Shown: positions 25,772 through 57,639 of the stretch, piece by piece
Layout: every line of letters begins with the position of its first letter
How positions within the stretch are numbered: the first letter of the stretch is position 1
Source: an uncultured Thermoleophilia bacterium
GTDB taxonomy: Bacteria > Actinomycetota > Thermoleophilia > UBA2241
Assembly (NCBI GenBank): GCA_963832655.1
Contig: CAWHUW010000009.1
Location: 89,675-153,674 of the forward strand
Direction: 5' to 3'
Length of the DNA: 64,000 nucleotides
Notes under the pieces: generated by a model
What the model was told of the DNA's origin: nothing
Database searches by the model: none
Seen by the model: the letters and a program-made list of their open reading frames with translations, nothing else
Position numbers and translations under genes: made by a program

Positions 25772-26929
25772 ATGGGGAAGCGAACCGAGTTCCTGTACCT
25801 GTCCGAGCCGGACATGATCGAGGCCGGCGTCCTGGATGCACCACGCTGCGTCGACGTCTGTGAGGATGTCTTCAAGCTCCTCGCCACCGGCGACTACCTG
25901 ATGGGGGGCTCGAACCACAACAACCACGGCTTGGGCATCGAGTTCCCGGAGGAGTCGCCGTTCCCCAACATGCCGCTGGCGGGACCGGATCGCCGCTTCG
26001 TCGCGATGCCGGCCTACCTGGGCGGCAAGTACGACGTGTGCGGCAACAAGTGGTATGGCTCCAATCCCGACAACCCCGCCCGGGGCCTGCCGCGCTCGGT
26101 CCTGACCGTGATGCTCAACGACAAGGTCACCGGAGAGCCCCTGTGCCTCATGTCGGCGAACCTGCTGAGCTCCGCCCGCACAGGCGCGATCCCCGCCGTG
26201 GCCACGCGCTACCTGGCACGCCAGGACTCCGAGGTCTGCACCGTGATCGGCTGCGGCCCGATCAACAGGGCCTGCGTTCGCGCCATCGTCTCGCAGATGC
26301 CGAGCCTGAAGAGGGTGATCTGCCACGACCTTCACGGAGGAGAAGGCCCAGGCGTTCGCGGATTGGTCGCAGAACGATGCTCGGGATACCCGGTGTCGTT
26401 TCGACCTCGCTTGACGACTGCGCTCCGGGACGGCGATGTCGTGACCGTCGCGGCCTCGCGCCTGAAGACGCTCTACGTGGAGGACGCGTGGTTCAAGCGC
26501 GGGGCGACCGTGCTCCTCACCGGCCCGATGAAGGCGGAGGACTCCTTCTGGCTCAACAGCCGGATCGTCTACGACAACATCCACCTGCACGAAGCCTACG
26601 TTCTGGACGCGCTCGCCACTCCCGACAAGCTCAAGTACTACGACGGCGTCATCGGCGGACCGCTCTACAGGCTGATCGACGACGGCAAGCTGCCGTCGCT
26701 CGCCGACTCCACCGACCTGGGAAACGTCATCCTGGGCAACAAGAGTCGTCGTGAGAGCGCCGAGGAACGCATCGTCCTCGTCGCCTCCGGAATGGCCGTC
26801 TTCGACGTCGCCTGGGGATATGAGCTCTACCAGGCAGCCCTCGAGCGGGGACTCGGCCAGCGTCTCCTGCTGTGGGACCAGCCATATCGCGAAGCCGCTC
26901 CCCCGCCCAGCGTCCTGGCTGAGTCCTAG
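25772..26929 (+). CDS. Ornithine cyclodeaminase/mu-crystallin family protein ('tyramine oxidase subunit B'-like)
   Basis: 'DRRFVAMPAYLGG', 'KWYGSN', 'SARTGA', 'GCGPI', 'GMAVFDVAWG'. There is a possible compensated frameshift at ~26330-26400. Confidence 0.85.
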   Translation: MGKRTEFLYLSEPDMIEAGVLDAPRCVDVCEDVFKLLATGDYLMGGSNHNNHGLGIEFPEESPFPNMPLAGPDRRFVAMPAYLGGKYDVCGNKWYGSNPDNPARGLPRSVLTVMLNDKVTGEPLCLMSANLLSSARTGAIPAVATRYLARQDSEVCTVIGCGPINRACVRAIVSQMPSLKRVICHDLHGGEGPGVRGLVAERCSGYPVSFRPRLTTALRDGDVVTVAASRLKTLYVEDAWFKRGATVLLTGPMKAEDSFWLNSRIVYDNIHLHEAYVLDALATPDKLKYYDGVIGGPLYRLIDDGKLPSLADSTDLGNVILGNKSRRESAEERIVLVASGMAVFDVAWGYELYQAALERGLGQRLLLWDQPYREAAPPPSVLAES

Positions 26930-26949
26930 CGGACAGAGAGCAGTAAGGG

Positions 26950-28354
26950 ATGCGGAAGATCCGGAACTTCGAAGCACTGGTCTCGCACGGAGCAGCGGAC
27001 TCCAGGAGGGTGGTGCTGGAGATCGCCGACAAGACGCTCCAGCGGCTGGACGCCTACAAGCGGATCAAGAGCATCACGCGCCTGGAGGGGAGCTCCCTGC
27101 ACATCGGGACGCGGACCTGGGACCTCTCGAAGAAGCGGCACGTCTATCTCGTCGGCGCCGGAAAGGCGTGCAACGCGATGGCTGCGGCGCTCGACGAGAT
27201 CCTCGGCCACCACCTCAGCAAGGGGATCGCGATCGTCAAGGTCGCCGAGGAGGGAGACGTCTTCAGGAACACGGACGTCTACGTGGGCGGACATCCGCTG
27301 CCCAACGAGACCGGACACGAGGCCTCCCTGAAGATCCTGGAACTCGCGGACGGGGCGGGTCCCGACGACCTGTTCATCGCGGTGATCAGCGGGGGCAGCT
27401 CGGCTCTCATGAGCTGCCCCGATCGAGGGCATCTCCCTGCAGGACGAGATGGACGCGACGGACGTCCTGCTCAAGTCCGGCGCCGGCATCTACGAGATCA
27501 ATGCGATCCGGCGCCACATCTCGCAGACGAACGGCGGCATGCTGGCCAAGCGGATCCAGGCCTCCGGTGCCGAGCTGATCGGCTTCGGCATCTCCGACGC
27601 GGTCGGCAACCCGCCGACAGGCGACATCGGGATCCCGTACCGCGACTACGCGAGCACGCCGATCGGCCCCGACAAGACCACGCTCGATGACGCCCGGCGC
27701 GTCATCGCCGACTACGACCTGGCCGATCGGCTTCCCCCCGACGTCGTCCGCTACCTCATGGAGGCCGGGGACGATCGCGAGACGCCGAAGGCGTTTCCTG
27801 ACAATACGTACTTCGTGCTCAACACCGTGCCCGATTCGTGCATCTATGCGCGAGAGGTCGCCGAGGAGATGGGGGTCACCGCCCACATCCTGACTTCCTT
27901 CCTCGAGGGCGAGAGCAAGGATGCCGGCACGTTCTTCGCCTCGCTTGCCCGCGAGGTACAGGCCTACGGCAATCCGTTCCCGGCGCCGTGCGTGATCCTC
28001 AGCAGCGGAGAGACGACGACGAAGATCCCGGACAACGCCGCCGTCGAAGGACACGGAGGGCCGTCGCAGGAGCTCACCGCGAGCTTCGCCATCAGCGCCG
28101 CGAAGGCCCCCGGCGCGTGCATGTTCTCGGTGGATTCGGAGGGGACCGATGGGACCACACCCGCGGCCGGCGGTCTCACCGACTCCACGAGCTACGAGAC
28201 GGCCGTGGAGAAGGGCGTGAGCCTGCATGCCGCGCTGCGGGGCCACTCGTGCTACGAGGCGCTGGGGGCCATCGGCGACACGGTGTTCACCGGCAACACA
28301 GGAACGAACCTCTGCGACTTCAACATCCTCTACGTCCCGGCACTCGGGGACTAG
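26950..28354 (+). CDS. Glycerate 2-kinase type (DUF4147/MOFRL) kinase (frameshift near 27420)
   Basis: 'VGAGKA', 'GGHPLPN', 'ISGGSSALM', 'EINAIRRHIS', 'SGETT', 'DSEGTDG', 'TGNTGTNLCD'. Confidence 0.85.
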
Positions 28355-28405
28355 CCAGAGGCACACCACACGGCCACGCCACACCAGCGACGAAGCGAGT
28401 CACAC

Positions 28406-29674
28406 ATGAGGATCGAATCCGTGCGGGCACGGCAGCTCATCGACTGCAAGTGCCGGCCGATGGTCGAGGTCGAGGTCGAGACGGAGGGAGGGTTCGTCGG
28501 CAGGGGCGCCGCGCCCACAGGCCAGTCGGTGGGCATGTACGAGGCCTTCGTGCTGCGGGACGACGATCCCGATGAGTACGGCGGCCTCAGCGTGCACCGG
28601 GCCGTGGAGAACGTGCGGCAGGTCATCGCGCCGGCCCTCGTCGGGATGCCGGTCGACGACCAGCGCGCCCTCGACGGCGTGATGATCGCCCTCGATGGGA
28701 CGGAGAACAAGAGCAACCTGGGCGGCAACGCCATCTACTCGACCTCGATCGCCTGCTTCAGGGCCGCCGCCGCCGTCGCCGGAGTACCCCTCTATCGATA
28801 CCTCGGAGGGGACGGGCTCGCGACGGTTCCCGTGCCGAGCTTCAACATGGTGAACGGGGGCCGCTACGGCGACATGGTCCAACCGTTCAACGAGTTCATC
28901 GTCATGCCCTACAAGGCGGAGTCGATCTTCGAAGCGGTGGAGATGGGGGTCAGGGTCTTCGAGGTGATGGCGCATGTCCTGGAGCGGTATGTCGGGTCAC
29001 CACCCGAGGTGGCGCGCTCCTACGGCTACGTGGCGCCGTCTGAGGACCCCGAGGTCGTCCTCTCACTCATGCGGGAGGCGATCGATGCCTGCGGGTACGC
29101 CGACAAGATGGCCTTCGCGCTCGACTGCGCCTCGAGCGAGATGTACGACGCGGCGACCGCGACCTACTACCTCAAGGGGGAGCGCGTCAGCTCCGGCGAT
29201 CTGATCTCCTACGCCAAGGACCTGACCGAGAAGTTCGACTTGGTGTTCATCGAGGATCTCCTCGAGGAGAACGACTGGGATGGCTATGCCCGTGCGGTAC
29301 GGGAGATCCCGCGCACGATCATCCTTGGCGACGACCTCATCGCCACGAACCTGGCGCGTCTCCAGAGGGCCAGCGCCATGAGAGCGGTCGACGGATTCCT
29401 TCTCAAGCCGAACCAGGTCGGGACGATCTCGGAGGCTCTGGAGACCTACGAGTACGCCGTCGGGCACGGTCTCATCGCGGTCCCTTCCGGGCGCTCCGGC
29501 GGGGTCGTCGACGACGTGGTCATGGATCTGTCGGTCGGGCTCCAGGTGCCGTTCCAGAAGAACGGCGCGCCACGATCCGGAGAGCGCATCGAGAAGCTCA
29601 ACTTCCTCATGCGCGCGGCTGACACGATCCCCGACTGCCGCCTGGCCGATGTTGCCAGCATCGTGAAGTTCTAG
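28406..29674 (+). CDS. Enolase-family protein with divergent active site
   Basis: Enolase fold motifs 'DGTENKSNLGGNAI', 'ALDCASSE', 'FIED', 'GDD', 'KPNQVG'. Several catalytic residues are altered (see findings). Confidence 0.85.
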   Translation: MRIESVRARQLIDCKCRPMVEVEVETEGGFVGRGAAPTGQSVGMYEAFVLRDDDPDEYGGLSVHRAVENVRQVIAPALVGMPVDDQRALDGVMIALDGTENKSNLGGNAIYSTSIACFRAAAAVAGVPLYRYLGGDGLATVPVPSFNMVNGGRYGDMVQPFNEFIVMPYKAESIFEAVEMGVRVFEVMAHVLERYVGSPPEVARSYGYVAPSEDPEVVLSLMREAIDACGYADKMAFALDCASSEMYDAATATYYLKGERVSSGDLISYAKDLTEKFDLVFIEDLLEENDWDGYARAVREIPRTIILGDDLIATNLARLQRASAMRAVDGFLLKPNQVGTISEALETYEYAVGHGLIAVPSGRSGGVVDDVVMDLSVGLQVPFQKNGAPRSGERIEKLNFLMRAADTIPDCRLADVASIVKF

Positions 29675-29725
29675 GACCGGGTCTCTGGCGTGGTCCTCCG
29701 AGACACGGACGTGAGGAGTCGCAGC

Positions 29726-31033
29726 ATGGCGGACAACGAGCGACGAGCGCGGCGGCGCGACTTCTGGTCGCGGCCCGGCCTTGCGGTTCGCGGCGGGCGC
29801 CTCGAGATCGCCGGGCGCGACGCCGAGGCGCTGGCGCGCACGCACGGCACGCCTCTGTACGTCTTCGACCTGCAGAAGATCGGCGAGCAGGCGCGCGCGC
29901 TGCACGCGGCGCTCGAGGGCGTCGGTCTGCGTCATCGCGTGCTGCTCGCCGTGAAGGCGCAACGCGAGCCGGAGGTGCTCGCCTTCGTGCGCGGTCTCGG
30001 CGCGCCGGGCGAGCACGGGAGCGTCGGTCTCGACGTGTGTTCACCCGGCGAGTTGCTGCACGGGCTCGCCCACGGGTGGCAGGCCGACGAGATCAGCTAC
30101 ACCGGCACCAACGTGAGCGAGCGCGATCTCGACGTCATCCTGGCCCACGAGGTCCACCTGAACCTCGACCTTCTCAGCCAGATCCGCCGCGTGGGGCGCC
30201 GGGCGCCCGGGCGGCGGATCGGGCTGCGCATCAACCCGCGCGCCGGCGCGGCGTGGCGGGGCGAGAACGAGTCGCTCTACAGCAGCCACCGGCCGACGAA
30301 GTTCGGCATCTACCCGGAGCAGCTCGACGAGGCGGTCGCACTGGCGCGGGACTACGGCCTCATCGTCGACACCATCCACTTCCACGTCGGCGACGGCTAT
30401 CTCAGCGACGCCGTGCCTGCGTTCGGCGTCGCCGTCGACCGCGCCGCCCAGGTGGTCGAGAGGGCACGCTCCCTCGGCTGCCCCGTCGAGACGCTCAACG
30501 TCGGCGGCGGGCTGGGGGTGCCCATGGCTCCCGGCGACGCGCCCCTCGACGTGGCCGCCTGGGCGCGCATGCTTGCCGACCGCCTCGCCGGGCTCGACGT
30601 CACCGTGGTGGTCGAGCCGGGCGACTTCCTCGTCAAGGAGGCGGCGATCCTTCTCGGCGAGGTGGTGACCGTGGAGGACCGCATGGGCACCCCGTTCATC
30701 GGTCTCGACATGGGCTGGAACGTCATGAACGACCACTTCATCTACGAGGCGCCCTTCGAGTACGTCGTCTGCGCCCGTGCCGACGCGCCGCGGGAGCGGC
30801 GCGTCACCATCAGCGGCCACATCAACGAGGGCGACGACCTCTGGGCCGAGGACTACCCGTTCCCGGAGGTCGAGGAGGGCGAGATCGTCGCCTGCATCAA
30901 CGTCGGCGGCTACAACCAGGCGATGCAGATGCCGCACTGCCTGCGCCCACCGGCGCCGGCGGTCTACTTCGACGACAGGGACGCCGCGCCGGACGGCGCG
31001 GCCGCCTCACCGAGTGTCAGGAGGGCTGTATGA
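29726..31033 (+). CDS. PLP fold-type III decarboxylase (diaminopimelate decarboxylase-like)
   Basis: 'GTPLYVFD', 'AVKA' (PLP Lys), 'KFG', 'HFHVG', 'NVGGGLG', 'EPG'. Confidence 0.85.
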   Translation: MADNERRARRRDFWSRPGLAVRGGRLEIAGRDAEALARTHGTPLYVFDLQKIGEQARALHAALEGVGLRHRVLLAVKAQREPEVLAFVRGLGAPGEHGSVGLDVCSPGELLHGLAHGWQADEISYTGTNVSERDLDVILAHEVHLNLDLLSQIRRVGRRAPGRRIGLRINPRAGAAWRGENESLYSSHRPTKFGIYPEQLDEAVALARDYGLIVDTIHFHVGDGYLSDAVPAFGVAVDRAAQVVERARSLGCPVETLNVGGGLGVPMAPGDAPLDVAAWARMLADRLAGLDVTVVVEPGDFLVKEAAILLGEVVTVEDRMGTPFIGLDMGWNVMNDHFIYEAPFEYVVCARADAPRERRVTISGHINEGDDLWAEDYPFPEVEEGEIVACINVGGYNQAMQMPHCLRPPAPAVYFDDRDAAPDGAAASPSVRRAV

Positions 31034-32689
31034 GCGCAGTGACCCCGTCCGGTCAGCGGTACGACGCGGTGGTGATCGGCGGCGGCCACAACGGTCTGGT
31101 GGCGGCGTTCTACCTCGCTCGCGGGGGGCTCCGTACGCTGGTCCTGGAGCGTCGCGAGATGGTCGGCGGCATGGCCGTCACCGAGGAGTTCGCCCCCGGC
31201 TTCCGCGCTTCCCCGGGGGCGTACGTGCTGGCCATGCTCGGCGAGCACATCTGGCGCGACATGCGGCTCGCCGAGCGCGGCCTGCACGTCGACGCCTGCG
31301 GCCCGAGTCTGAATGTCTACCCGAGCGGCGCCCACTTCTGGATGGAGGAGCACGCCGTCGACGCGGCGAGGGAGGTGGGCCGCTTCTCGAAGAAGGACGC
31401 CGCCGCCTACCCGCGGTTCGACGAGGGACTGACGCGGATCGCGCGCTGGTTCGGGCCGCTCTTCGGCCTCACGCCTCCCGACCTCAGCATGCGGACGCGC
31501 CGCCGACTGGGGCCGAATGGCCCGCCTCGGCGGCACGGCGCTCAAGAACCGCAAGCAGCTGCTCGACGCCTACCAGCTCATGATGGCGTCGAGCACGACC
31601 TACCTGGACGAGCGCTTCGAGTCGGACGAGGTCAAGGCGGGCCTCGCCTGGTTCTCGATCAACGACTCGGTCTCGGGGCCTTCGACCCCGGGCACCGCCT
31701 ACACGCTCCTGCACGAGTACGCCTCCTCGGAGGCCGGCGGCGGCGTGCGCAAGTGGGGCTTCGTGCGCGGCGGCATCGGCATCCTGGGCCGGCTCATGGC
31801 CGACGCCGTGCGCGAGGCAGGCGGCGAGGTGCGCACGAACGCCGCCGTGGAGCGCGTGCTCGTCTCGGGCGGGCAGGCGACCGGCGTGCTCCTGGCGGGC
31901 GGCGAGGAGATCCAGGCCCCGCTGGTGGTCTCCAACGCCGATCCCAAGACGACCATGCTCGGCCTCGTCGGCGAGGAGAACCTCGACGCCGGCTTCTGCA
32001 GCTCTCTCAAGACGTTCATCACCGACGGCACGAGCATCAAGGTGAACCTGGCGCTGGGCGCGCTGCCCAAGCTGGCCTTCCCGGCGCTCAACGACGGCGA
32101 CGGCGTGCAGCGCTACCACCGCAGCATCATCGAGCTGACCAGCTCGATCCGCCAGATGGACCTCAACCAGGCCGAGGCGCGCGCCGGCATCCCGGCCAAG
32201 GACTATCCCCATGTCGAGTGCTGCTTCCCCACGGTCTTCGACCCGTCGCTGGCGCCGGAGGGCAAGCACATCATGACCATCGACATGAACTCGCAGCCCT
32301 ACACCTTGCGCGACGGGTCGAACTGGGACGACATCATCGGCGACGTCGCCGACCGCTGCATCAAGCAGCTGTGCGACTGCTTCCCGGGGCTCGACGGCAT
32401 GATCGAGCATCGGCAGACGCTCTCGCCGCTCGACATGGAGCGCCTCTTCAACGCCACCGGCGGCCACGCCCTGCACGGAGACATGGGCGACCACCAGATG
32501 TTCTTCTTGCGCCCCGTGCGCGGCTGGGCCAGCTATCGGATGCCCGTCCGTAACCTGTACCTCTGCGGCGCCGGCACCCATCCGGGAGGCGGCATCTCGG
32601 GAGCCAACGGGACCAACTGCGCCAACGAAGTGCTCCACGACGCGAAGAAGATGAAGCTCGCGGCGAAGCCCGGGGGCGACGGGCGATGA
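31030..32689 (+). CDS. FAD-dependent oxidoreductase, phytoene dehydrogenase-related (COG1233) (frameshift near 31500)
   Basis: 'IGGGHNGLVAA.YLA', 'GGMAVTEE', 'GFVRGG', 'NLYLCGAGTHPGGG'. Confidence 0.85.
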
Positions 32690-33051
32690 GCGGCCTGCCG
32701 GCGATCGGCAACGCGGCCGGGGTGCCGCTCGAACCGGAGGACTTCGCTCCCGGGGCGGTCATCGAGGGATCGCCGCGCATGATGAGCCACGACCTCTACG
32801 TCTCGCCCGACGAGCGCGTGTTCAGCGGCATCTGGAGCGTCACGCCCGGCAGGTTCCACGACGTGATGGACGGCGACGAGACCTTCGTCGTGCTCGCCGG
32901 CCGCATGACCGTCGAGCCCGAGGACGGCAGCCCGCCGTTCGAGGTCGGGACGGGCGACGTCTGCGTGTTCGCGGCGGGCTACCGCAGCGTGTGGACGGTT
33001 CACGAGACGATCGTCAAGGGGTACCACATCGAGCTGCCGGCGGGAGGCTGA
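32686..33051 (+). CDS. Cupin, DUF861/EutQ-like
   Basis: 'SGIWSVTPG.F', 'ETFVVLAG', 'WTVHETIVK.Y'. Confidence 0.85.
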   Translation: MSGLPAIGNAAGVPLEPEDFAPGAVIEGSPRMMSHDLYVSPDERVFSGIWSVTPGRFHDVMDGDETFVVLAGRMTVEPEDGSPPFEVGTGDVCVFAAGYRSVWTVHETIVKGYHIELPAGG

Positions 33052-33058
33052 CACGGCG

Positions 33059-34251
33059 GTGCCGCCGGCAGAGCCGGCCTCGCCGTCCGCGGCGGGCGCA
33101 CCTCCGCCCGCGCTCGGCGCGAGCGCGCTCGCGAGCGCGCTCGCGTGGGCGCGCGACGAGCTGGTGCGCCTGGTCGAGATCCCCTCGCCCTCCGGCGAGG
33201 AGGCGGCCGTCGTCGACTACCTGGAGGGTCGCGATCGCCGAGCTCGGACTGCCGGCGCGGAGGGACCCCGTCGCCGGCGGCTGCGACAACCTCGTCGTCG
33301 GCTGCCCCTTCGAGCCCCGGCTCGCGCTGGTCGCGCACGTCGACACGGTCAAGCCCACCTGGGAGTGGGACGGCGAGGCGCGCGTCCAGGGCGACGAGGT
33401 CTGGGGGGTCGGCTCCGTCGACGACAAGGGCAGCGTGGTCGCCGCGCTGCTGGGACTGCTGCTGGCGCGCGACGCCGGCGTGCCCGTCGTCGACCTTCCG
33501 CTGAGCGTGGGGCTCACGGTCGACGAGGAGGAGGGCGGGACCGGCTCGATCGCCCTCGCACGCTCGCTGCGCCCGCGCCACGCCCTGGTCATGGAATCGT
33601 CGGAGTTCGACATCGCCGTCGCCGAGGCGGGAGTGGTCGAAGTCATGCTCGCGGTGCACGGGCGGAGCGCTCACGGCTCCGTGCCCGAGCAGGGCGACAA
33701 CGCGGTGGTCAAGGCGGCGCGGCTCGTCGTCGCCCTCGACGATCTTCCGTTCCTGCGCCGGGCGCACCCGCTGATCGCGCCGGCCGTCGTCGTCCAGCAG
33801 ATGCACGGCGGCTCGGATCTTCACGTGGTGCCCGACCTGGCCGAGGTCCACCTGGACGTGCGTCTCGGTCCGAACCTGCGCCCGCAGGAGGTGTTCGCCG
33901 AGCTGAGGCGCGCTGGCTGCCCGTCACGACGCGGAGGTGCGCACCATCGAGCTCGCCGACGCCTGGGAGACGCCGGCCGACGCGCCGTTCGTCGCAAGTC
34001 TGCGTCGCGTGGTCGCCGAGACGCTCGGCCGCGAACCTGAGCTCTTCGGGTTCCCCGCCTGGACCGACGCCCACAACATGGTGGAGGTGGGCGGCGCGCA
34101 GGCGGTCGTGTTCGGGCCGGGGCCGCGGCTCTCGACGGCGCACCGGCCGGACGATCACATCGACCTGCGCGAGGTGCTCGACTGCGCGTTGGTGGTCAGG
34201 CGCCTGGCGTGGGACCTGTGGCGCGCCGGCCCCGACTGGCCCGCGAGCTGA
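33059..34251 (+). CDS. M20 family metallo-amidohydrolase (ArgE/DapE-like); frameshifts near 33230 and 33910
   Basis: 'IPSPSGEE', 'AHVDTV', 'GSVDDKG', 'DEEEG', 'GRSAHGS', 'FGPG...AHRPDDHI' spread over three frames. Confidence 0.8.
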
Positions 34252-34710
34252 CGGCGGCGAGCGGCCAGTCGACAAGAGCGCGCCGTGGCGAGGATCTGGA
34301 CGCCGCCGGCGAGCAGCGCGAGCCGCAGCCACAGGTCGGGCCAGGAGAGCGTCTCGCCCCCGTCGCCGAAGCAGCCGCAGCCGATCTCGAGGCCGCGGAG
34401 CAAGGCGCTGGTGAGGGCGCCGGTGTAGACGGCCGCCAGGGCGGCCGTCACGAGCCCGGCGCCCGGCGTCCACAGGCCCGCGATCAGGCAGACGCCCGTC
34501 ACGAGCTCGACCCAGGGCAGGACGATGGCGGTCGCGTTGACGAGCCCCAGCGGCAGGATGCGGTAGTCGTCGATCGCGTCGGCGAAGGGCTGCGGGTCGA
34601 GCAGCGTGTCGAGGCTCGCGTACACGAGCACGGCGCCGGCGGCGAGGCGCAGCACCAGGGTGAGCCGCCGGTCGCCGAGGAGGCGGCCGAAGCCTGCGCG
34701 CGGCGCTCAC
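34155..34710 (-). CDS. MauE/DoxX family redox-associated membrane protein (both ends uncertain, likely frameshifted)
   Basis: 'LPWVELVTG', 'RGLEIGCGCFG'; adjacent to the rhodanese stop. Confidence 0.75.
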
Positions 34711-35174: not shown

Positions 35175-35193
35175 CGCCCGCTCACGTTCGGGC

Positions 35194-36705: not shown

Positions 36706-36747
36706 GTCGACTGTTGACAGTCTATCAATGACCGGTCATGCTCGCAA
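36706..36747 (-). promoter_or_regulatory. Aminotransferase promoter with heptad operator
   Basis: Minus strand TTGCGA-N17-TAGACT. GACTGTTGACAGTC near-palindrome at 36709-36722; a second perfect palindrome ATGACCGGTCAT at 36728-36739. Confidence 0.75.
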
Positions 36748-38773: not shown

Positions 38774-38802
38774 TTGCGAGTGTCGACTGTCGACAGTACG
38801 AT
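38774..38802 (+). promoter_or_regulatory. Promoter with heptad operator in the spacer
   Basis: TTGCGA-N17-TACGAT; GTCGACT-GTCGACA-GTACGAT. Confidence 0.8.
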
Positions 38803-45815: not shown

Positions 45816-45842
45816 GACACCCTCGACGTGAAAGGGGTCGCG

Positions 45843-49533: not shown

Positions 49534-50289
49534 TCAGGTCAGGGTCTCGCCGCCGTCCACCACGAGCACGGCGCCGGTCATGAACGACGCCGCGTCGCTG
49601 GCGGCGAAGGCGACCGCCTCGGCGATCTCGTCGGGCTTGCCGTAGCGCCCCAGCGGGATCTTGGCCAGCGCGAAGGCGACCGTGTCCTCGTCGTCCTCGG
49701 CGGTCATGCCCGTCTCGATCCAGCCGGGAGCGACCGCGTTGACGCGGATGCCGAGGGGAGCCAGCTCGACGGCGAGGGAGCGGGCGAACATGTGGACCGC
49801 CGCCTTGGTCGCGTTGTAGGTCGGCGACGGGTCCTTGAGGTCGACGACGATCCCGCTCGACGAGCCGATGGCGACGATCGCGCCGCCGCCTCTCGTGCGC
49901 ATGAGGCGCGCCGCGCCGCGCGCGGTGAGGAAGACGCCCCTGACGTTCACCGCCATGTTCTCGTCGAAGACTGCGGCCGGCAGGTCGAGGATGCTGTAGT
50001 CCTCGTCGGTCTCGATGCCGGCGTTGCACACGCAGATGTCGAGACCGCCGAAGGTCCTCTCGATCTCGGCGAGCAGCTGCTCGACCTCCTCCTCACGACT
50101 CACGTCGCAGCGCGTCCCGGCGACCGCGCCGGCGAGTCCCTCGAGCTGTCGCCGGGCGGCCGTCAGTCGCCCGGCATCCCGGCCGCAGATCATGACCGAC
50201 GCGCCCTCGCTCGCGAGCAGGCGCGCCGTGGCGAGACCGATCCCGCTGCTCCCGCCGGTCACCAGCGCCACTTTGTCGCGGAACCTCAT
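49534..50289 (-). CDS. Short-chain dehydrogenase/reductase
   Basis: TGGSSGIG, CNAG, YNATK, 'IRVNAVAPG'. Confidence 0.9.
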   Translation of the reverse strand: MRFRDKVALVTGGSSGIGLATARLLASEGASVMICGRDAGRLTAARRQLEGLAGAVAGTRCDVSREEEVEQLLAEIERTFGGLDICVCNAGIETDEDYSILDLPAAVFDENMAVNVRGVFLTARGAARLMRTRGGGAIVAIGSSSGIVVDLKDPSPTYNATKAAVHMFARSLAVELAPLGIRVNAVAPGWIETGMTAEDDEDTVAFALAKIPLGRYGKPDEIAEAVAFAASDAASFMTGAVLVVDGGETLT

Positions 50290-51020
50290 GGGGCGTCTCC
50301 CTTCTCCGTCGCGCGGTCGACCCGGGGCGGGCCCGCCTCGTTGCGGAAGGCGTGCCTCGTCCAGGGGCAGACCCAGATGCAGATGCCGCAGATCTCGTCG
50401 AACTCGGGGAAGCTCGACTGGTGGGCGTCGCAGGCGGCGCAGTCGTAGAGGACGCGGCGCGGGATCCCCGCGCGCCACGCGACGTCGCGTCCCGCGCCGA
50501 CCGGGCAGGCGTCCACGCACGCGCGACAGGACCCGCAGCGTCCGGTGGTGACGGGCATGCCGGTCGAGAGCGGCAGGTCGGTGAAGACCGTGCCCAGGCG
50601 CACCGAGGCGCCGAACTGAGGGGTCACGAGGAGGGCGGTCTTGCCGATCCAGCCGAGGCCCGCCTGAGTCGCCGCGGTCTTCGAGGCGAAGATCTCCGGG
50701 TCCGTTGGTCCGTCCGGCGCGTCGTCGTCCACGCGCTCGCCCCGATAGCCGTGCGCCCGGAGCAGCGCGACGCACGCCTCGCCGATCTCGACGAGCTCGT
50801 CGTTGACCCGACGATACTCGCCGACCTCAGCCTCGTTCGGGCCTAGCTCGAGGCCGTCGATCGAGGCTGGCCGCAGCCTCAGGGCGAAGGAGATCGCCGT
50901 GGGCAGGTCGGGCGCCGCCGGCCAGTCGGGTCGCACCGCCGCGGCGCCCCAGAGGTCGACCCCGCGGGCGCCCATGAGCGCCGCCATCGCACGGTCGTCG
51001 AGTGCCTTGTCGTCACGCAT
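50286..51020 (-). CDS. QueG/reductive-dehalogenase-like 4Fe-4S protein, paralog of 7576-8262
   Basis: 'KTAATQAGLGWIGKTALL', CGSCRACVDACP, CGICIWVCPW. Confidence 0.8.
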   Translation of the reverse strand: MRDDKALDDRAMAALMGARGVDLWGAAAVRPDWPAAPDLPTAISFALRLRPASIDGLELGPNEAEVGEYRRVNDELVEIGEACVALLRAHGYRGERVDDDAPDGPTDPEIFASKTAATQAGLGWIGKTALLVTPQFGASVRLGTVFTDLPLSTGMPVTTGRCGSCRACVDACPVGAGRDVAWRAGIPRRVLYDCAACDAHQSSFPEFDEICGICIWVCPWTRHAFRNEAGPPRVDRATEKGDAP

Positions 51021-51062: not shown

Positions 51063-51092
51063 GTTGACTGTCGACACTTGACTATGTAGCAT
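51063..51092 (+). promoter_or_regulatory. pot operon promoter with heptad operator
   Basis: TTGACT-N17-TAGCAT; GTTGACT-GTCGACA-CTTGACT. Confidence 0.8.
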
Positions 51093-51156: not shown

Positions 51157-52266
51157 ATGAGCACGAAGAGCCGCGGGCTCGCGATCCTCACCCTGGTCGT
51201 CCTGGCCCTGGCCGTCCCGGTACTGGCGGCGTGCGGGGACGAGGAGGCCAGCCCCTCGCCGAGCGCCACGGCGCCCGTCGAGGTCTCCGGTGAGCTCACC
51301 CTGTTCGCTTACGAGGACGGCTTCGTTCCGAAGTACATGAAGCCGTTCAAGGAGGCCTACCCGGACGTCGATCTCAGGGCGAGCGCCTACGACAGCGGCG
51401 ACGCCGCCATCGCCAAGATGCGCGCGGGGTTCGAAGCTGACGTCATCAACCTCTGCGTGGAAGAGAACGCCGAGCAGGCCGTGCGACTCGGTCTCGTGCA
51501 GCCGCTCGACGTGAGCCGTCTGACGCACTGGGACGAGATGTTCCCGGTGTTTCTGACCCTGCCCGCCGTGACGGCCGAGGACGGCCAGCACTACCTGGCG
51601 CCGGTCGACGCCGGGGTGACCGGGGTCCTCTACGACACGACCAAGGTCACCGAGAAGCCGACGTCGTTCATGGACCTCTTCGACCCCAAGTACGAGGGTC
51701 AGGTCGCGATGATCGACTACCCGGTGACCGCGATCCAGGTGGGCGCCCTGGCGCTCGGCTACGAAGACCCGATCAACCTCACGCCCGAGCAGCTCGACGC
51801 GGTGAAGAACCTCTACATCGAGGCCAAGCAGCGCGGCCAGTTCCGCACCTTCTTCTCCAACGACTCCGAGATCGTCGCTCTGTTCCACACCGGCGAGGTC
51901 ACGATCGCCGTGGGCTACCCGGGGAACGCGCTGGACTCGCAGCGCGAGGGCGACCCGGTGGAGTTCTCGATCTGCAAGGAAGGGCAGATCGTCTGGACCT
52001 GCGGCTACGGTATCAGCAAGACGTGCAAGAACATCGACGCCGCCTACGCACTGATCGACTACTACCTGTCGCCCGAGGCGCAGGCGTTCGAGGTCAATGA
52101 GTGGAGCTACTTCCCCACCCTCGAGACCACGCTCGACCTGCTCGACCCGAAGGTGCGCGTGCAGGCCGAGATCGTGCGCGAGTGGGGGAACATCGTACCG
52201 GCGGCCCCGCCGGCCGAAGGCTACGACGAGTGGATCCGCGCCTGGCAAGAGGTGAAGAGGAGCTAG
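51157..52266 (+). CDS. potD: PotD-like ABC substrate-binding lipoprotein
   Basis: RBS AAGGAGG; lipobox LAAC; closely similar to 38857-39978; first gene of the ABC operon. Confidence 0.88.
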   Translation: MSTKSRGLAILTLVVLALAVPVLAACGDEEASPSPSATAPVEVSGELTLFAYEDGFVPKYMKPFKEAYPDVDLRASAYDSGDAAIAKMRAGFEADVINLCVEENAEQAVRLGLVQPLDVSRLTHWDEMFPVFLTLPAVTAEDGQHYLAPVDAGVTGVLYDTTKVTEKPTSFMDLFDPKYEGQVAMIDYPVTAIQVGALALGYEDPINLTPEQLDAVKNLYIEAKQRGQFRTFFSNDSEIVALFHTGEVTIAVGYPGNALDSQREGDPVEFSICKEGQIVWTCGYGISKTCKNIDAAYALIDYYLSPEAQAFEVNEWSYFPTLETTLDLLDPKVRVQAEIVREWGNIVPAAPPAEGYDEWIRAWQEVKRS

Positions 52267-53183
52267 TGGCGCAGGCCGTACTGCAGAACCCTGGGGCGGC
52301 ACCGGGCGAGGGTGGCATCCCCGTCGCGCAGGTGCCGCTCGGCCTTCGCGTGCGGCGTTCTCTCGACGCCGTCGGGGGGCGCACCTACGCGATCGTGTTC
52401 ATCATGCTGCTCTACGGCCCGCTCGTCCTGCTGGCGGCATTCTCGTTCAACGACTCCATCGTCTTCTCGTTGCCGTGGAGCGGCTTCACGACGAAGTGGT
52501 ATTCGGAGGCGTTGTCCGATTCGAACCTCCGCCAGGCGCTGCGGAACTCGGTGATCGTGTCCAGCATCGTCGCTCCGGCGAGCGTCATCCTCGGGACCCT
52601 CGCCGCGTACCCGATCACCCGTCTGCGCTTCAAGCTGCGCGGCGGGGCCGCCATGCTTCTCGCCGCGCCGCTCGTGGTGCCTTGGCTGGTGATCGGCATC
52701 AGCGCGCTCATCTACTTCAACAAGGCGGGGGTCGCCCTGTCGTGGCACACGGTCGTGCTCATGCACATCGTGGTCACGTTCCCGCTCGTCACGGTGCTGA
52801 TGTCGGCGAGCATGGCGCGTTTCGACCGCACCCAGGAGGAGTCGGCCATCGACCTGGGGGCGTCCCAGCTGCAGGTCGTGCGCCACGTGCTCCTGCCTCA
52901 CATCGCGCCGTCGCTGATGGCCTCGTTCATCCTCGCCTTCTCGTGGTCGTTCAACAACTTCGAGATCACCTACTTCGTCGGCGGCTTCGACCAGCTCTTC
53001 CCGGTCTGGGTGTACTCCACCCTGAGACATGCCTCCAACCTGCCGATCGTCAACGCCGTCTCCACACTCGTCTCGATCGTCGAGGTGCTGCTCGTCTACA
53101 CCTTCTGGGTGCTCATAACCCGGGGCGCCGGCGCCCGCACCTCGAAGGAGAAGACCGACACCCTCATGGAGTCGATCCGCTGA
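52266..53183 (+). CDS. potC: Polyamine-type ABC permease (PotC-like)
   Basis: 'LYGPL..L..FSFN', 'GFTTKWY', EAA loop 'EESAIDLGAS'. Confidence 0.88.
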   Translation: MAQAVLQNPGAAPGEGGIPVAQVPLGLRVRRSLDAVGGRTYAIVFIMLLYGPLVLLAAFSFNDSIVFSLPWSGFTTKWYSEALSDSNLRQALRNSVIVSSIVAPASVILGTLAAYPITRLRFKLRGGAAMLLAAPLVVPWLVIGISALIYFNKAGVALSWHTVVLMHIVVTFPLVTVLMSASMARFDRTQEESAIDLGASQLQVVRHVLLPHIAPSLMASFILAFSWSFNNFEITYFVGGFDQLFPVWVYSTLRHASNLPIVNAVSTLVSIVEVLLVYTFWVLITRGAGARTSKEKTDTLMESIR

Positions 53184-54079
53184 TGGCCACCGTGGCTCCG
53201 TCCGCTCCCAAGGACCGCCAGCTCCGCGCCCGCGCGGTCAAGAAGTTCCGCCCGGTCGCGTTCCTGACTGCTCCGATCGCCGTGATCCTGCTCCTGTTCG
53301 TGGCGCCGCTCATCATCCTCGTGATCATGAGCTTCCGCTTCGAATCGCTGTACGGGTTCCAGACTGGGTGGACGCTCGACAACTTCCGGCTTCTGTTCAC
53401 CGATCCCATCTACCGCGGAGTGGCCAAGGACACGCTGATCATCGCCACCACGGCCATGGTGTGCCAGCTCCTGATCGCCTTCCCGCTGTCGTACTTCATC
53501 GCCTTCAAGGCAGGCCGGTGGGAGCTGCCGCTGCTCCTGCTGCTCGTGCTCGTCGACGAGCTCAACCCCATCGTCCGCATCTACGCCTGGCGCATGCTGC
53601 TCGGGAGGGAGGGGCTGATCAACGACTTCCTGATGTGGACCGGGATCGTCGACGCCCCCCTTGACTGGCTTCTGTTCACGAAGTTCTCGGTGATCCTCGT
53701 GCTCTCGACCAGCTGGGTGAACTACTGTGCCTTGCCCATCTACGCGTCGATGAAGGCCATCAACCCGGCCCTCTTCGAGGCGGCGACGGATCTCGGCGCC
53801 GGCTGGTTCACGCGCTGGCGTCGCGTCCTGCTGCCCCTCGCCGCGCCCGGCATCTTCGTCGCCGTCATCCTCGTGTACATCCCGCTGTTCACCGACTTCG
53901 CGACCCCGGGTCTGGTCGGCGGCACGTCGTCGTACATGCTCGGTAACTCGGTCGCCGACCTCATGGTCACTATCGGCGACTGGGGTGGCGGCGCCGCGCT
54001 GAGCCTCTTGCTGCTGGGGGCGATGGCGGTCGTCGCGGTGATCGCGTACTTCCTCACCAAACTCAACCAGCTCGACTGA
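53183..54079 (+). CDS. potB: Polyamine-type ABC permease (PotB-like)
   Basis: 'WTLDNF', 'VRIYAW..LLGREGLIN', 'FEAATDLGA', 'DWGGGAALS'. Confidence 0.88.
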   Translation: MATVAPSAPKDRQLRARAVKKFRPVAFLTAPIAVILLLFVAPLIILVIMSFRFESLYGFQTGWTLDNFRLLFTDPIYRGVAKDTLIIATTAMVCQLLIAFPLSYFIAFKAGRWELPLLLLLVLVDELNPIVRIYAWRMLLGREGLINDFLMWTGIVDAPLDWLLFTKFSVILVLSTSWVNYCALPIYASMKAINPALFEAATDLGAGWFTRWRRVLLPLAAPGIFVAVILVYIPLFTDFATPGLVGGTSSYMLGNSVADLMVTIGDWGGGAALSLLLLGAMAVVAVIAYFLTKLNQLD

Positions 54080-54105: not shown

Positions 54106-55239
54106 ATGAACGACACCCCCGCGCAAGGCCATATCAGGATCGAGCGCGTCACCAAGAAGTTCGGCGACACGGTGGCGGTCGACGACGTGACGTTCGAGAT
54201 CCCGGGCGGCGAGTTCTTCTCGATGCTCGGGCCGAGCGGCTGCGGCAAGACGACCACGCTGCGCATGATCGCGGGGTTCGAGGACCCCACGGCGGGGCGC
54301 ATCATCCTCGAGGGCAAGGACGTGAGCTTCGTGCCGCCGGCGAAGCGCAACGTGAACATGGTCTTCCAGGCCTACGGCCTCTTTCCGCACATGACGGTCA
54401 GCCAGAACGTCGCCTTCGGGCTCAAGGTGAAGAAGGTCGCGAGAGCCGAGATCGCCGAGCGCGTTCAGGAGGCGCTGCGCACGGTGCGCATGGACGCCTT
54501 CGCCGATCGCCGGCCGGCCCACCTTTCCGGCGGCCAGCAGCAGCGCGTCGCGCTGGCCCGGGCGCTGGTCAACCGGCCGGCCGCGCTGCTGCTCGACGAG
54601 CCCCTGGGCGCCCTCGATCTCAAGCTCCGCAAGGAGATGCAGCTCGAGCTCAAGCGCATCCACGCCACCACGGGGACGACCTTCGTCTACGTCACCCACG
54701 ACCAGGAAGAGGCGCTGACGATGTCGCAGCGCATCGCGGTGATGAAGGACGGCATCGTGCAGCAGGTGGCGACGCCGCGGGAGCTGTACGAGAAGCCGGC
54801 GAACGCCTTCGTGGCCGGCTTCATCGGCACCTCCAACGTGATCAGCGTGCAGCCAGGCGGTGCGCGCGACGGCGTCGCCGTGATGGACCTCGGCGACGGG
54901 GACCGTGTGTGCGTGCCGGACGTCGGCGCGGGAGCTGGTCCAGTGAAGATCATCGTGCGGCCCGAGCGCATGCGCGTGTGGGGCGACCCGGACGGCGAGC
55001 GTATCTCGCGCGTGCGCGGCACGATCGCCGAAGTCGTGTACCTGGGCTCCATGACGCAGTTGATCATCGACCTCAAGACCGGCGAGCGCGTGACCGTGCA
55101 CGAGCTGAACGACGACCTCAAGGGCGCGCTTCCCGAGATCGGCGACCCGGTCCTGGTCCAGTGGGCCGCCGAGAGCAGTTACGTGATCGACGACGCCGGC
55201 GCTGTCAACGTCGCGGCCGGCTCGGCTTCACCCGATTGA
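54106..55239 (+). CDS. potA: Polyamine-type ABC ATPase (PotA-like)
   Basis: [42 protein letters not shown] tail. Confidence 0.93.
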
Positions 55240-55297
55240 CGGCGCCGGCGGCCAGCCGGCGCATGTCGTCACAGGCACATCATCCACCAGAAGGAGC

Positions 55298-57105
55298 GTG
55301 CAAATCGTGGACTTCTACACCGGCAAGGTCCTCAGGATCGACCTGAGCGCCGGCGCCACCGCCGTCGAGCCGCTCGACCTGGACTGGGCGCGGCTCTACC
55401 TGGGCGGCAAAGGCCTCCTGTTCCGCTACCTGTGGGACGAGGTCGCGCCGGGGCTGGACCCCGCCTCGCCCGCCAACCCCCTGATGCTCGTCACGGGGCC
55501 GTTCGCCGGCACCAACGTGACCACCGCGTCGCGCCTCGTCGTGGGCTGCAAGAGCCCCACGACGGGGACGATCCTCGACTCGTACGTCGGCGGCTCGTTC
55601 GCGCCCGAGATGAAGTTCGCGGGCTACGACATCATCATCCTCACGGGCGTCGCGCCCGAGCCCACCGTGGTCTGGATCAGCGACGACGTGGTCGAGTTCC
55701 GCTCGGCGACGCCGTACCTGGGCATGAAGACGTCGGAGGTCGAGGAGGCGCTGCGCAACGACCTCGACGGCGACGCGAAGGTGCTCTCCATCGGTCCGGC
55801 CGGGGAGAGCAGGATCCCGTGGGCCTGCCTGTCGACCGATCAGTACCACAAGGCAGGCCGCGGCGGGGCCGGCGCCCTCATGGGCATGAAGAACGTCAAG
55901 GCGGTCGCCATCCGCGGCACGGGCGCCGTGCCCGTCGGCGACGCCAAGGCCTTTCTCGACGCGATGTATGCCCTGCACCACGACTACATCCTCACCGACA
56001 CCAATCTGTGGGCGCACGAAGAGGGCACGCCGATGCTGGTCGACGTGATCAACGGCGGCGGCGCGCTGCCGACGCGCAACTATTCGTCCGGCACCTTCGA
56101 AGGCGCCGACAAGATCAACTCCGAGTCCTTCCAGAAGATCCGCGTCAAGAAGCGCGCCTGCTACCAGTGCGCCATCGGCTGCCGCAACTTCCACGCCACG
56201 AAGTGGGCCGGAGCCGAGGTGCGCGGCGAGGGCCCCGAGTTCGAGACCATCGCCCTCTGCGGCTCGAACTGCGGCATCGACGACATCGACGCGCTGATGA
56301 AGTTCAACGAGCTTTGCGACGAGCTCGGCATGGACACGATCTCTTCGGGCTCCGTGGTCGGTCTGGCCATGGATCTCTGCGAAAAGGGCTACGCCGATTT
56401 CGGTCTCGCCTTCGGCGACAGCAAGGGCTATCTGCAGGCGGTGGAGCTGATGGCGAAGCGCGAGGGCTTCGGCGCCGAGCTGGCGCTCGGCGCAAGGCCC
56501 TCGCCGCCAAGTACGGCCACCCCGAACTCGCCATGCAGGTGAAGAACATGGAGGTGCCCGGGTACGACCCGCGGGGCGCCTTCGGGATGGCGCTCAGCTA
56601 CGCGACATCCGACCGCGGAGCCTGCCACATGCGGTCCTTCCCCGTCGGCCAGGAGATCGTCGAGGGCTCGATGCCCGCCGACACCTTCGAGGGCAAGGCC
56701 GAGTGGATCGTGAACGCCGAGGCCGGCGGCCAGAACTTCTTCGCCCTCAAGTTCAGCGGCATCTGGTGCGACTTCTGGGCGATCGACCTCGAGCAGATCG
56801 CCATGCTCATGAAGCACCTGTGGGGCCGCGAGTTCGCGCGCGACGAGCTCATGCAGATCGGCGAGCGCATCTGGAACCTCGGGCGGCTGTTCAACTTGCG
56901 CGAGGGGCTCACGATCGCCGACGACGCGCTGCCCGAGCGCATGCACGAGCAGCGCTTCGCGGAGGGCGCGGCGGCGGGCAAGGTGATCGACCGCGCCGCC
57001 TTCGCCGACGCCCTGCAGGAGTACTACGCCATCCGCGGCTGGGATGCCGCCGGCGTCCCCTCAGAGGCCAAGCTCGCAGAGCTCGGCGTCGACGTGCGCC
57101 TCTAG
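55298..57105 (+). CDS. aor: Aldehyde:ferredoxin oxidoreductase (W/Mo-bis-pterin AOR family); frameshift near 56495
   Basis: 'YLGGKG', 'KSP.TG', 'SIGPAGE', 'AGRGGAGA.MG.KN.KA', CxxCxxxC, 'GPEFET', 'CDELGMDTIS', 'PGYDPRG', 'RGACH', 'YY..RGWD'. Confidence 0.9.
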
Positions 57106-57141
57106 ACGACCGTCCGGCGAGAGACGAAGGGACACACAGAC

Positions 57142-57639
57142 ATGCCTCACGTGATGATCAGTTCCAAGAAGTGCACCGGCTGCCACATGTGCGAGCTCGC
57201 CTGCTCGGCGCAGCACGAGAACGCCTACCGCCCCTCGGTCGCGCGCCTCTTCGGCGAGGTCAACCCGACCACGGGCGCCATCAAGGGCCACACCTGCCTG
57301 CAGACCGGCTGCGCCAAGTGCCAGGAGGCCTGCCCCAACGACGCCATCGTGACGAAGGAGATCACCGTCAAGGTCAAGGGCGACTTCGCCGGCCGCGAGA
57401 AGCTCGGCGACACCGTCAACGGCTACGTGCTCGTCGTCGTCGACGACCTCTGCACCAACTGCGGCGAGTGCTACGACGTCTGCCCCACCGGGGTCATCCA
57501 CGAGCACCCCGACCGCGAGGTCGCCTTCAAGTGCGACCTCTGCGACGGCGAGCCCCAGTGCATCGCCTTCTGCCAGAACCCCCACGTCCTCGCCGTCGAC
57601 CTCAAGGTCGACAAGATGGACCGGGAGCTGCAGGCGTAG
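57142..57639 (+). CDS. Multi-[4Fe-4S] ferredoxin-like subunit, AOR partner
   Basis: CTGCHMCELAC, CLQTGCAKCQEACP, CTNCGECYDVCP, KCDLC...C...C. Confidence 0.9.
   Translation: MPHVMISSKKCTGCHMCELACSAQHENAYRPSVARLFGEVNPTTGAIKGHTCLQTGCAKCQEACPNDAIVTKEITVKVKGDFAGREKLGDTVNGYVLVVVDDLCTNCGECYDVCPTGVIHEHPDREVAFKCDLCDGEPQCIAFCQNPHVLAVDLKVDKMDRELQA

Follow-up and report, generated by a model that had tools for sequence, protein, structure and literature searches.

Gene content of the locus

The window analysed here is a stretch of 64,000 nucleotides from an uncultured Thermoleophilia bacterium (assembly GCA_963832655.1, contig CAWHUW010000009.1, forward-strand positions 89,675 to 153,674), and between about 25.6 and 61.9 kb it holds a catabolic block of about 30 genes that, judged from its gene content and regulatory sites, is a real regulon under a GntR/FCD regulator in a Thermoleophilia host. 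At its centre lie genes for a GrdE-like protein, GrdB, GrdC, a thioredoxin and GrdA, with in-frame TGA codons in both grdB and grdA, and these encode an actinobacterial variant of the glycine/sarcosine/betaine reductase family. The G+C content of the window is 70%, so that plain lists of open reading frames (ORFs) are crowded with shadow frames; genes were called with a codon-bias model and named by Pfam and NCBIfam (Table 1).

An earlier reading of the DNA without database searches (the sequence-only reading) had described positions 25772–57639 as a self-contained, Stickland-like island for amine catabolism in an actinobacterium, combining uptake, cleavage, oxidation and selenocysteine (Sec)-dependent reduction under a shared operator. 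The Pfam and NCBIfam assignments recover every gene family it named, each at its proposed place. For uptake there are four PotD/PotF-like binding proteins with two permeases and an ATPase; for cleavage, an OCD-family enzyme, a class III aminotransferase, a threonine-aldolase/GntG-family enzyme, a fold-III decarboxylase, and M20 and metallo-beta-lactamase-fold (MBL) hydrolases; for oxidation, an FAD oxidoreductase, two short-chain dehydrogenases (SDRs) and an aldehyde:ferredoxin oxidoreductase (AOR) with its ferredoxin; and for reduction, the five-gene reductase. The 'lactonase' fared less well, as an SGL/NHL propeller gene is present but the label is weak, the best PDB matches being designed 'Pizza' propellers and the propeller of PknD. 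The actinobacterial host was correctly recognised, the same-genus relatives being Thermoleophilia. The region also contains genes that had not been listed, namely those for a glycerate-2-kinase-like protein, an enolase, a cupin, a MauE/DoxX protein, a rhodanese, the GntR/FCD regulator and an Fe-S protein, and the Pfam and NCBIfam annotation shows neither a GrdD nor a thioredoxin reductase gene in it.

A shared palindromic operator

The intergenic regions contain a 12-nt palindrome, ACTGTYGACAGT, which was spotted by reading the intergenic DNA after a repeat search had missed it. When up to two mismatches are allowed it matches 14 times, counting both strands, at six places between genes (against an expectation of 5.7 ± 3.3, with 14 reached in one of 100 shuffles), and at least six transcription units are preceded by this one operator. 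When no more than one mismatch is allowed only seven sites occur across the 2.70-Mb genome (designated G000), and five of these, all intergenic, lie in this region, in agreement with the proposed sharing of an operator. The two sites elsewhere are at C8:69225 and C6:183609 of G000; one lies between saccharopine-dehydrogenase-like and Fic-domain genes, and the second precedes a PotD-like fragment together with a gene for an M24 creatinase/prolidase-like hydrolase. Because the sixth operator is at 60064, ahead of a split secreted-protein gene and with a matching site kept in the relatives, the regulon passes the boundary first drawn at 57639.

The operator is found at the corresponding intergenic places in all eight relatives that carry the cluster. 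The region thereby shows what characterises a GntR/FCD regulon, a regulator gene accompanied by a repeated palindrome that precedes the units and is kept in relatives, and the GntR/FCD protein is the presumed binder of the palindrome.

A variant reductase of the Grd family

Five of six component tests place the reductase within the Grd family, and it belongs to none of the glycine, sarcosine and betaine equivalogs. GrdB matches PF07355 (388 bits) and TIGR01918 (430 bits, cut-off 65), and GrdA matches NF040748 (201 bits, cut-off 130) with the motif ECFVU. Reference genes were taken from annotated records: grdG/grdF of P. acidaminophilum; the GrdI-type gene, grdH, grdC and grdD of E. gilvus (L122); and the grdX-trxB-trxA-grdE-grdA-grdB-grdC-grdD locus of A. 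noterae (L123). The grdB TGA aligns with the Sec of reference GrdB, GrdF and GrdH, and the likeness to the glycine reductase of A. noterae (Peptostreptococcales) extends to all five families (GrdE, GrdB with Sec, GrdA with Sec in CxxU, GrdC and thioredoxin), to the Sec positions, and to a TxGNxTxV block in GrdB. There are also departures. Around the GrdB Sec the window has U-G-T-G-T-R-C and the references U-G-T-C-T-R-C, that is, UxxGxxC rather than UxxCxxC, and the difference is common to all actinobacterial sequences in which the motif was found; GrdC, at 438 residues, is about 70 residues shorter than the references (511–514 residues).

Hairpins are predicted after both UGA codons, but they are no more stable than those of shuffled sequences (z 0.25 and -1.74). 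No solved structure in the PDB was matched by the GrdB sequence. A distant GrdB of the type A clusters described below (L047:11227-12507) has a Cys at the Sec position and runs to a normal stop, and this natural variant could ease heterologous expression.

Conservation among relatives

A GrdE orthologue is present in eight of 40 relatives searched, comprising six of 12 genomes of the same genus and two from other genera of the family, and in none of 16 genomes from other families; across the class, matches at E <= 1e-30 occur in 20 of 401 genomes, the window's own included. All eight relatives keep the modules within 40 kb, so the loss of synteny that had been named as a counter-indication to a single island is not seen. 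The order from decarboxylase to ferredoxin is collinear in seven of the eight, and the eighth is rearranged. AOR and Grd genes belong to one regulon in seven of eight family genomes, and in one of the eight relatives no AOR is seen in the 40 kb around grdE.

Other genes of the region

A little upstream of the island are two tandem rubrerythrin genes, which the same-genus relatives keep (76–99% identity) and which are a sign of an oxygen-sensitive lifestyle. Between the ferredoxin and secreted-protein genes is a gene for an M28 peptidase with a PA domain, which is not at the corresponding place in seven of the eight relatives; in the rearranged one (G016) it lies between the aldolase and aminotransferase genes. 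The secreted protein of about 540 residues matches no Pfam family, and the ESM Atlas gave only a DUF3604 lead (0.91). The PotABCD-type layout is complete, with a PotD/PotF-like binding protein, two permeases and a PotA-like ATPase. The binding protein is nevertheless distant from PotD (55.9 bits, cut-off 582), and its match to phnS2 is weak (36.7 bits). The repeat search brought out the paralogy of the binding proteins, four of which lie in the island, and annotation shows a fifth PotD-like protein elsewhere in the genome. PDB and NCBIfam matches narrowed the substrate of none of the flavoenzyme, aminotransferase, SDRs, MBL hydrolase or propeller.

Table 1. Genes and operator sites of the region, with positions in the window
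Feature	Position	Strand	Evidence or remark
Two tandem rubrerythrins	22969-24059		a little upstream of the island
Operator 1	25638..25649		ACTGTTGACAGT; upstream of OCD gene
OCD/mu-crystallin family enzyme	25772..26929	+	NF004848, 405 bits, cut-off 362
Glycerate-2-kinase-like (DUF4147 + MOFRL)	26950..28354	+	Pfam/NCBIfam; one surplus base at 27422 splits gene
Enolase	28421..29674	+	TIGR01060, 362 bits, cut-off 300
Fold-III PLP decarboxylase, LysA-like	29690..31033	+	209 bits, under cut-off 298
CrtI/amine-oxidase-like FAD oxidoreductase	31039..32689	+	surplus base near 31496 splits gene
EutQ-like cupin	32686..33051	+	Pfam
M20 (ArgE/DapE family) deacylase	33059..34251	+	three frames; surplus bases near 33232 and 33907
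MauE/DoxX membrane protein	34155..34655	-	Pfam
Rhodanese-domain protein	34707..35174	-	Pfam
Class III (GABA/omega type) aminotransferase	35194..36525	-	Pfam, NCBIfam
Operator 2	36710..36721		between aminotransferase operon and gntR
GntR/FCD regulator	36830..37498	+	Pfam
PotD-like binding protein 1	37517..38627	+	start uncertain; probable frameshift in signal peptide (about 37560)
Operator 3	38786..38797		perfect palindrome
PotD-like binding protein 2	38911..39978	+	best PDB matches PotD/PotF, E 2e-17 and weaker
Threonine-aldolase/GntG-family PLP aldolase	39950..41032	+	338 bits, cut-off 230
Operator 4	41056..41067		perfect palindrome; upstream of grdE
GrdE-like protein B subunit	41095..42375	+	Tyr at pyruvoyl-forming Cys position
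GrdB-family selenoprotein	42369..43652	+	Sec TGA 43383-43385; motif UxxGxxC
GrdC (component C beta)	43717..45033	+	527 bits, cut-off 450
Thioredoxin	45034..45357	+	Pfam, NCBIfam
GrdA selenoprotein	45357..45815	+	Sec TGA 45483-45485; motif CFVU
SGL/NHL six-bladed propeller	45828..46697	+	Pfam, NCBIfam, PDB
SDR 1	46739..47539	+	glucose-1-dehydrogenase subfamily; 223 bits, cut-off 215
MBL hydrolase	47553..48374	+	Pfam, NCBIfam
PotD-like binding protein 3	48371..49487	+	surplus base near 48914 splits gene
SDR 2	49534..50289	-	glucose 1-dehydrogenase subfamily; 235 bits, cut-off 215
4Fe-4S protein (QueG/RDH-like Fe-S part)	50286..51020	-	Pfam, NCBIfam
Operator 5	51067..51078		one mismatch; divergent promoter region
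PotD-like binding protein 4	51157..52266	+	Pfam; repeat paralogy
Two ABC permeases	52266..54079	+	Pfam
ABC ATPase with TOBE domain	54106..55239	+	Pfam
AOR	55298..57105	+	missing base near 56492-56496 splits gene; in frame in relatives
Poly-ferredoxin	57142..57639	+	Pfam
M28 peptidase with PA domain	57796-59841		
Operator 6	60064..60075		two mismatches; ahead of split secreted-protein gene
Secreted protein, about 540 residues	60246..61882	+	split gene; single 539-residue ORF in a relative

A wider actinobacterial family in two gene contexts

The GrdE-like protein has 523 matches in a large protein collection, of which the best 120 all lack a specific name. In a collection holding a single genome for each species, a pattern scan gave 126 places; the 80 best of them, which we analysed, are all in metagenome-assembled genomes (MAGs) of Actinomycetota at 44–98% identity, although the scan patterns were built from conserved motifs of the clade itself and canonical Firmicutes genes could therefore not appear. 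ORFs of the 80 loci were clustered with flanks of up to 10 kb, many loci being cut short. Genes for GrdE (77 loci), GrdB (73), GrdA (67), GrdC (63) and thioredoxin (62) head the counts, followed by the aminotransferase (39), SGL propeller (38), SDR (36), binding protein (33), CrtI-like flavoenzyme (32), GntR regulator (29) and ATPase (25), and then by M20 (13), MBL (11) and the decarboxylase (9).

Two contexts can be distinguished. Type A loci have the layout crtI, aminotransferase, SGL, SDR, grdE, grdB, grdC, trx, grdA, gntR, binding protein, two permeases and ATPase; neighbouring genes often overlap at their ends, joining crtI, aminotransferase, SGL and SDR to grdE, and some of these loci also hold a PhoX-like propeller, an M20 enzyme, an amidohydrolase or an MR/MLE enzyme. 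Type B loci have an IclR gene followed only by grdE, grdB, grdC, trx and grdA, and constitute a second actinobacterial Grd clade, in Gaiellaceae and others, represented by L052, L086, L117 and about 30 further loci; GrdD was not found in the three type B genomes searched.

A GrdE tree of 75 rows (the window, three references and 71 loci, nine of the 80 having been dropped because they lack a GrdE ORF of at least 330 residues) separates the actinobacterial rows into two clades, one of type B with 34 rows and one of type A with 38 (SH-aLRT 98). The window's lineage (seven rows, SH-aLRT 99) is sister to the other 31 rows of the type A clade. The context labels are crude, as two rows labelled A fall in clade B, holding only paralogues of 30–39% identity. 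The GrdB motifs vary as well, being VHGGYDT and TTTGNSTPV in the window's lineage, close to the glycine reference; VHAGFDT and TTGVDTP in other type A members, HAGFD being found also in the single betaine reference; and VHGGFDV and TTTGNGTPV in type B. The operator lies beside crtI or grdE in all 11 distant type A loci scanned, but in none of three type B loci.

These contexts, the tree, the operator distribution and the failure to find AOR in the distant genomes searched (below) lead us to recognise an old conserved unit across Actinomycetota, consisting of a PotD-type ABC importer, CrtI-like flavoenzyme, aminotransferase, propeller, SDR, reductase and GntR regulator. To this unit the window's family has added the aldolase, AOR/ferredoxin, cupin, MauE, rhodanese and Fe-S protein.

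Recoding and energy genes elsewhere in the genome

The genome has the machinery for Sec, including tRNA-Sec, selB, selA and selD, the sel genes scoring above their cut-offs. The selD-selA-selB row (G000 C1:62891-67463) has each gene split across frames, selD also containing an in-frame TGA, and tRNA-Sec (C1:84159-84256) is 17 kb away. There is also a tRNA-Pyl with anticodon CTA (C6:293931-294003), and pylD and pylC adjoin it (L127:11329-13473); this Thermoleophilia genome appears able to decode pyrrolysine as well as selenocysteine. Enzymes of the MttB family remove methyl groups from methylamines and quaternary amines, and 52 matches to the MTTB family (PF06253) occur in the 2.7-Mb genome, several with one in-frame TAG (for example C5:41187-42581, C8:38381-39751 and C7:30234-31391); many are pieces of frameshifted genes, so that the true gene count is lower. 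ARAGORN further reports a tRNA of undefined identity with the four-base anticodon gagg (C7:370662-370749), which may be an artefact of an assembly indel. A thioredoxin reductase (TrxB) scores over its cut-off in four of five island genomes, the exception being the incomplete G000.

A possible pathway and the evidence for and against it

The host belongs to anoxic soils and sediments, and the nutrient that the block imports is probably amine-like. The reading that we prefer, to which we give an even chance of being right, is that an amine-derived hydroxy-amino acid is split, its glycine half passing to the Sec reductase and its aldehyde half to AOR. The four paralogous binding proteins would import an amino compound, and the decarboxylase, M20 deacylase, aminotransferase, flavoenzyme, SDRs and propeller would tailor it into a beta-hydroxy-alpha-amino acid, which the threonine-aldolase-family enzyme would split into glycine and an aldehyde. 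The Sec reductase with thioredoxin would then remove the amino group of glycine or of a close N-substituted glycine, while AOR would oxidise the aldehyde to an acid and reduce ferredoxin; if that acid is glycerate, the glycerate-2-kinase and enolase could take it to phosphoenolpyruvate. With GrdD missing, the carboxymethyl or acetyl group could come off GrdA/GrdC either as acetate or in thioester form, for instance acetyl-CoA, and not as acetyl phosphate.

The scheme in which the aldolase supplies glycine to the reductase and aldehyde to AOR is plausible: the position of the aldolase gene directly upstream of grdE and the presence of AOR and ferredoxin in one regulon fit a glycine that is reduced and an aldehyde that is oxidised. 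The adjacency to grdE holds in all nine loci that contain the aldolase, and the HGGYD and TTGNSTPV motifs of GrdB, as in the glycine reference, likewise support the link with glycine. Such a pathway may be redox-balanced. We have considered as candidate substrates ethanolamine or choline and their phosphoesters, 2-amino-2-deoxy-aldonates (for example glucosaminate), N-carboxymethyl amines (for example carboxymethyl-lysine), secondary amines resembling opines, taurine via sulfoacetate and 2-aminoethylphosphonate, and single out none of them.

A number of observations weigh against this reading, several of them in the reductase itself. In C. difficile GrdE is described as a proprotein whose Cys242 becomes a pyruvoyl group (PMC9908766). 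At this position the glycine and sarcosine references have SGN-C-V and the betaine reference has a Phe (one GrdI compared), and the window and all nine other actinobacterial sequences have a Tyr within a well-aligned block, as type B sequences do also; in the passages of the fluoroacetate reductase paper that bear on this, a missing pyruvoyl Cys is taken as a sign of substrates that do not need a Schiff base (PMC10838667). Assignment to the glycine, sarcosine or betaine reductases is not upheld by the equivalog models, since the scores are below the cut-offs for glycine (TIGR01917, 404 bits against 602), sarcosine (NF040794, 430 against 800; NF040793, 185 against 780) and betaine (NF040795, 368 against 775). 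Only three of the six blocks of a published GrdB motif (PMC9751293) are present in the window's GrdB, and the GrdF motif gives no match; the controls behave as expected, with A. noterae GrdB fitting the full GrdB motif and P. acidaminophilum GrdF the full GrdF motif.

Other difficulties concern the partners of the reductase. The A. noterae locus has GrdD, GrdX and trxB, all lacking in the window cluster, which instead forms part of a GntR regulon that includes an ABC importer. Searches with NF040747 found no GrdD in G000 and none in 10 further cluster genomes, three of which are 94–97% complete; matches in cluster genomes reach only 23–29 bits, and six of 14 control genomes are matched too, all under the cut-off. 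Acetate kinase (AckA) was found in only one of five island genomes, and the island itself has no thioredoxin reductase. The description as self-contained thus fails, and an ATP gain via acetyl phosphate is unproven. Nor are the aldolase and AOR long-standing partners of the reductase, given that the aldolase is present in nine of the 80 loci and AOR in none of five distant type A genomes searched. Finally, the 52 MTTB matches and the pyl cluster point to methylated amines.

Many of these same observations would be accounted for if the reductase acts not on free glycine but on some other X-CH2-COO- compound whose leaving group does without a Schiff base. This could be glycine betaine, dimethylglycine, an N-substituted glycine of greater bulk, or an analogue that contains no nitrogen, for example sulfoacetate; the imported amine would be turned into it by the flavoenzyme, aminotransferase, propeller and SDR, and the aldolase and AOR would be side branches. 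The Tyr of GrdE, paralleled by the Phe of the betaine GrdI and by FarE, which is reported to be unprocessed in the same manner (PMC10838667), is in keeping with such a substrate, as are the conservation of the core cluster in the absence of aldolase or AOR, the HAGFD motif that other type A members share with the single GrdH reference, and the fit of tRNA-Pyl, pylC, pylD and the MTTB matches with a methylated-amine life. However, GrdB of the window's own lineage has HGGYD and TxGNxTxV, like the glycine reference; the island has no betaine carrier of the BCCT or OpuA type; none of the 52 MTTB matches is on the window's contig; the aldolase adjoins grdE in all nine loci of the lineage; and the comparison involves only a single GrdH/GrdI reference. 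On balance we think another substrate of this kind rather improbable, if a serious contender.

We consider it unlikely that the block is a mosaic in which independent pathways have a regulator in common or are simply neighbours, with no single substrate and no built-in redox balance; its parts would be uptake and tailoring of polyamines or amino compounds, a reductase that stands alone as a sink for electrons, and a module for glycerate and aldehyde. The idea draws on the OCD/glycerate kinase/enolase module, which is present in just four of the eight relatives (78–97% identity), the other four having only paralogues of 35–40% identity on the opposite strand, so that the inclusion of this module in one unit is weakened and the proposed glycerate branch with it. 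The rearrangement in one relative, the lack of AOR in the distant genomes, the four to five paralogous binding proteins, and the two further operator sites, by the saccharopine-dehydrogenase-like gene and by the binding protein and M24 hydrolase, are also compatible with a mosaic. It is opposed by the single operator, which marks all of the units and stays with them in the relatives, by the overlapping starts and stops through which, in distant clusters, grdE is tied to crtI, aminotransferase, SGL and SDR, and by the decarboxylase-to-ferredoxin order of seven of the eight relatives.

A decaying island, in which the frameshifts are real and the pathway is dead in this strain, is very improbable and we reject it: at least six genes of the region are indeed split by single-base indels, but the same genes are in frame in relatives, contigs of three to four other public runs lack the surplus bases at 27422, 31497, 33232 and 33907-9, selD, selA and selB, far from the island, show the same kind of split, and an assembly of few long contigs that is nonetheless scored 65% complete is what indel errors predict. 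The genome is in 10 contigs. Set against close relatives, single-base indels split the genes for the glycerate kinase, the flavoenzyme, M20, binding protein 3 and AOR; the other-run contigs also lack bases at 34273/6 and 34693, this comparison covering 27000-46999, and the indels at 48914 and about 56494 were judged from relatives alone. The frameshifts are thus probably assembly indels. At 27422 and 33234 the window reads CGATCG and the relative G008 CG-TCG, the surplus base making a GATC each time, and such bases may reflect a systematic base-calling error at one motif.

Comparison with known systems

Among characterised reductases, the E. gilvus betaine reductase GrdH/GrdI (L122) resembles the window system in having a GrdI-type subunit without the processing Cys and a GntR-family gene nearby, but its locus has grdD, trxB and a BCCT carrier, all three lacking here, and GrdH has HAGFD and GTGT where the window GrdB has HGGYD and GNST.

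Parallels can also be drawn with two systems outside the Grd family. In the lower branch of the archaeal non-phosphorylative Entner-Doudoroff pathway glyceraldehyde is processed by an AOR-family enzyme, a glycerate 2-kinase of the MOFRL type and enolase, and the window similarly has AOR and ferredoxin, a MOFRL glycerate-2-kinase-like gene and enolase in one regulon; it differs in that no 2-keto-3-deoxygluconate aldolase or sugar-acid dehydratase is seen in the window and in the restriction of the kinase and enolase to half of the relatives. The enterobacterial PhnR-PhnSTUV-PhnWX operons for uptake and transamination of amines and aminophosphonates share with the window a GntR-family regulator, a PotD-family binding protein, two permeases, a TOBE-domain ATPase and an aminotransferase. 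Unlike them, the window has an aminotransferase of class III and a binding protein nearer to PotD, and it shows neither a phosphonatase nor a PhnA-type gene.

The fluoroacetate reductase FarE/FarB of Cloacibacillus porcorum (NF053623) is, as far as its description goes, similar in that the E subunit is no proprotein and the B subunit departs from UxxCxxC, and it demonstrates that the Grd family can take non-amine X-CH2-COO- substrates (PMC10838667). The far operon is described with an MFS antiporter and a radical SAM gene (PMC10838667), as opposed to the ABC importer, aminotransferase and flavoenzyme of the window. The FarE model gives the window protein 137 bits against a cut-off of 675, and the host phylum differs.

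Significance

Selenoenzymes of the Grd type are regarded as uncommon, belonging to clostridia that ferment amino acids, to Synergistota and to a few further groups. The family described here occupies at least 126 places in a collection with one genome per species, of which the best 80 are all in actinobacterial MAGs, many from classes deemed to be aerobic soil heterotrophs. For natural ecosystems outside serpentinite-hosted ones, a published survey gives, in the part relevant here, 107 species that carry GrdBE, a count that used a motif which the window's GrdB fails (PMC9751293). Our literature search found no paper joining Thermoleophilia or Gaiellales with glycine, betaine or sarcosine reductase, although the supplementary Grd tree of PMC9751293 may hold actinobacterial sequences, and a term search of the accessible text of a 2026 selenoproteome review found no mention of Actinobacteria or Actinomycetota (PMC13188914). 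The conserved gene context appears to be new, and the reductase is a variant within the known Grd family.

Three features that are regarded as central to the mechanism are missing from the variant: the pyruvoyl group, the partner Cys of the CxxC motif, and GrdD. It is possible, though we hold it to be doubtful, that this pyruvoyl-free, UxxGxxC, GrdD-less branch of soil and sediment Actinomycetota, together with a flavoenzyme, aminotransferase, propeller and SDR dedicated to it, reductively cleaves a new class of compound made from an imported amine, and that the two-carbon unit is released by a route that does not pass through GrdD and acetyl phosphate. Experiments could take hold directly at the conserved operator, the regulator and the four binding proteins. 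In view of its pyrrolysine decoding and dozens of MttB-family genes, the organism may be a specialist in amine turnover in anoxic soils, and if the variant reductase is active, its substrate must be new unless the textbook mechanism fails to hold in general.

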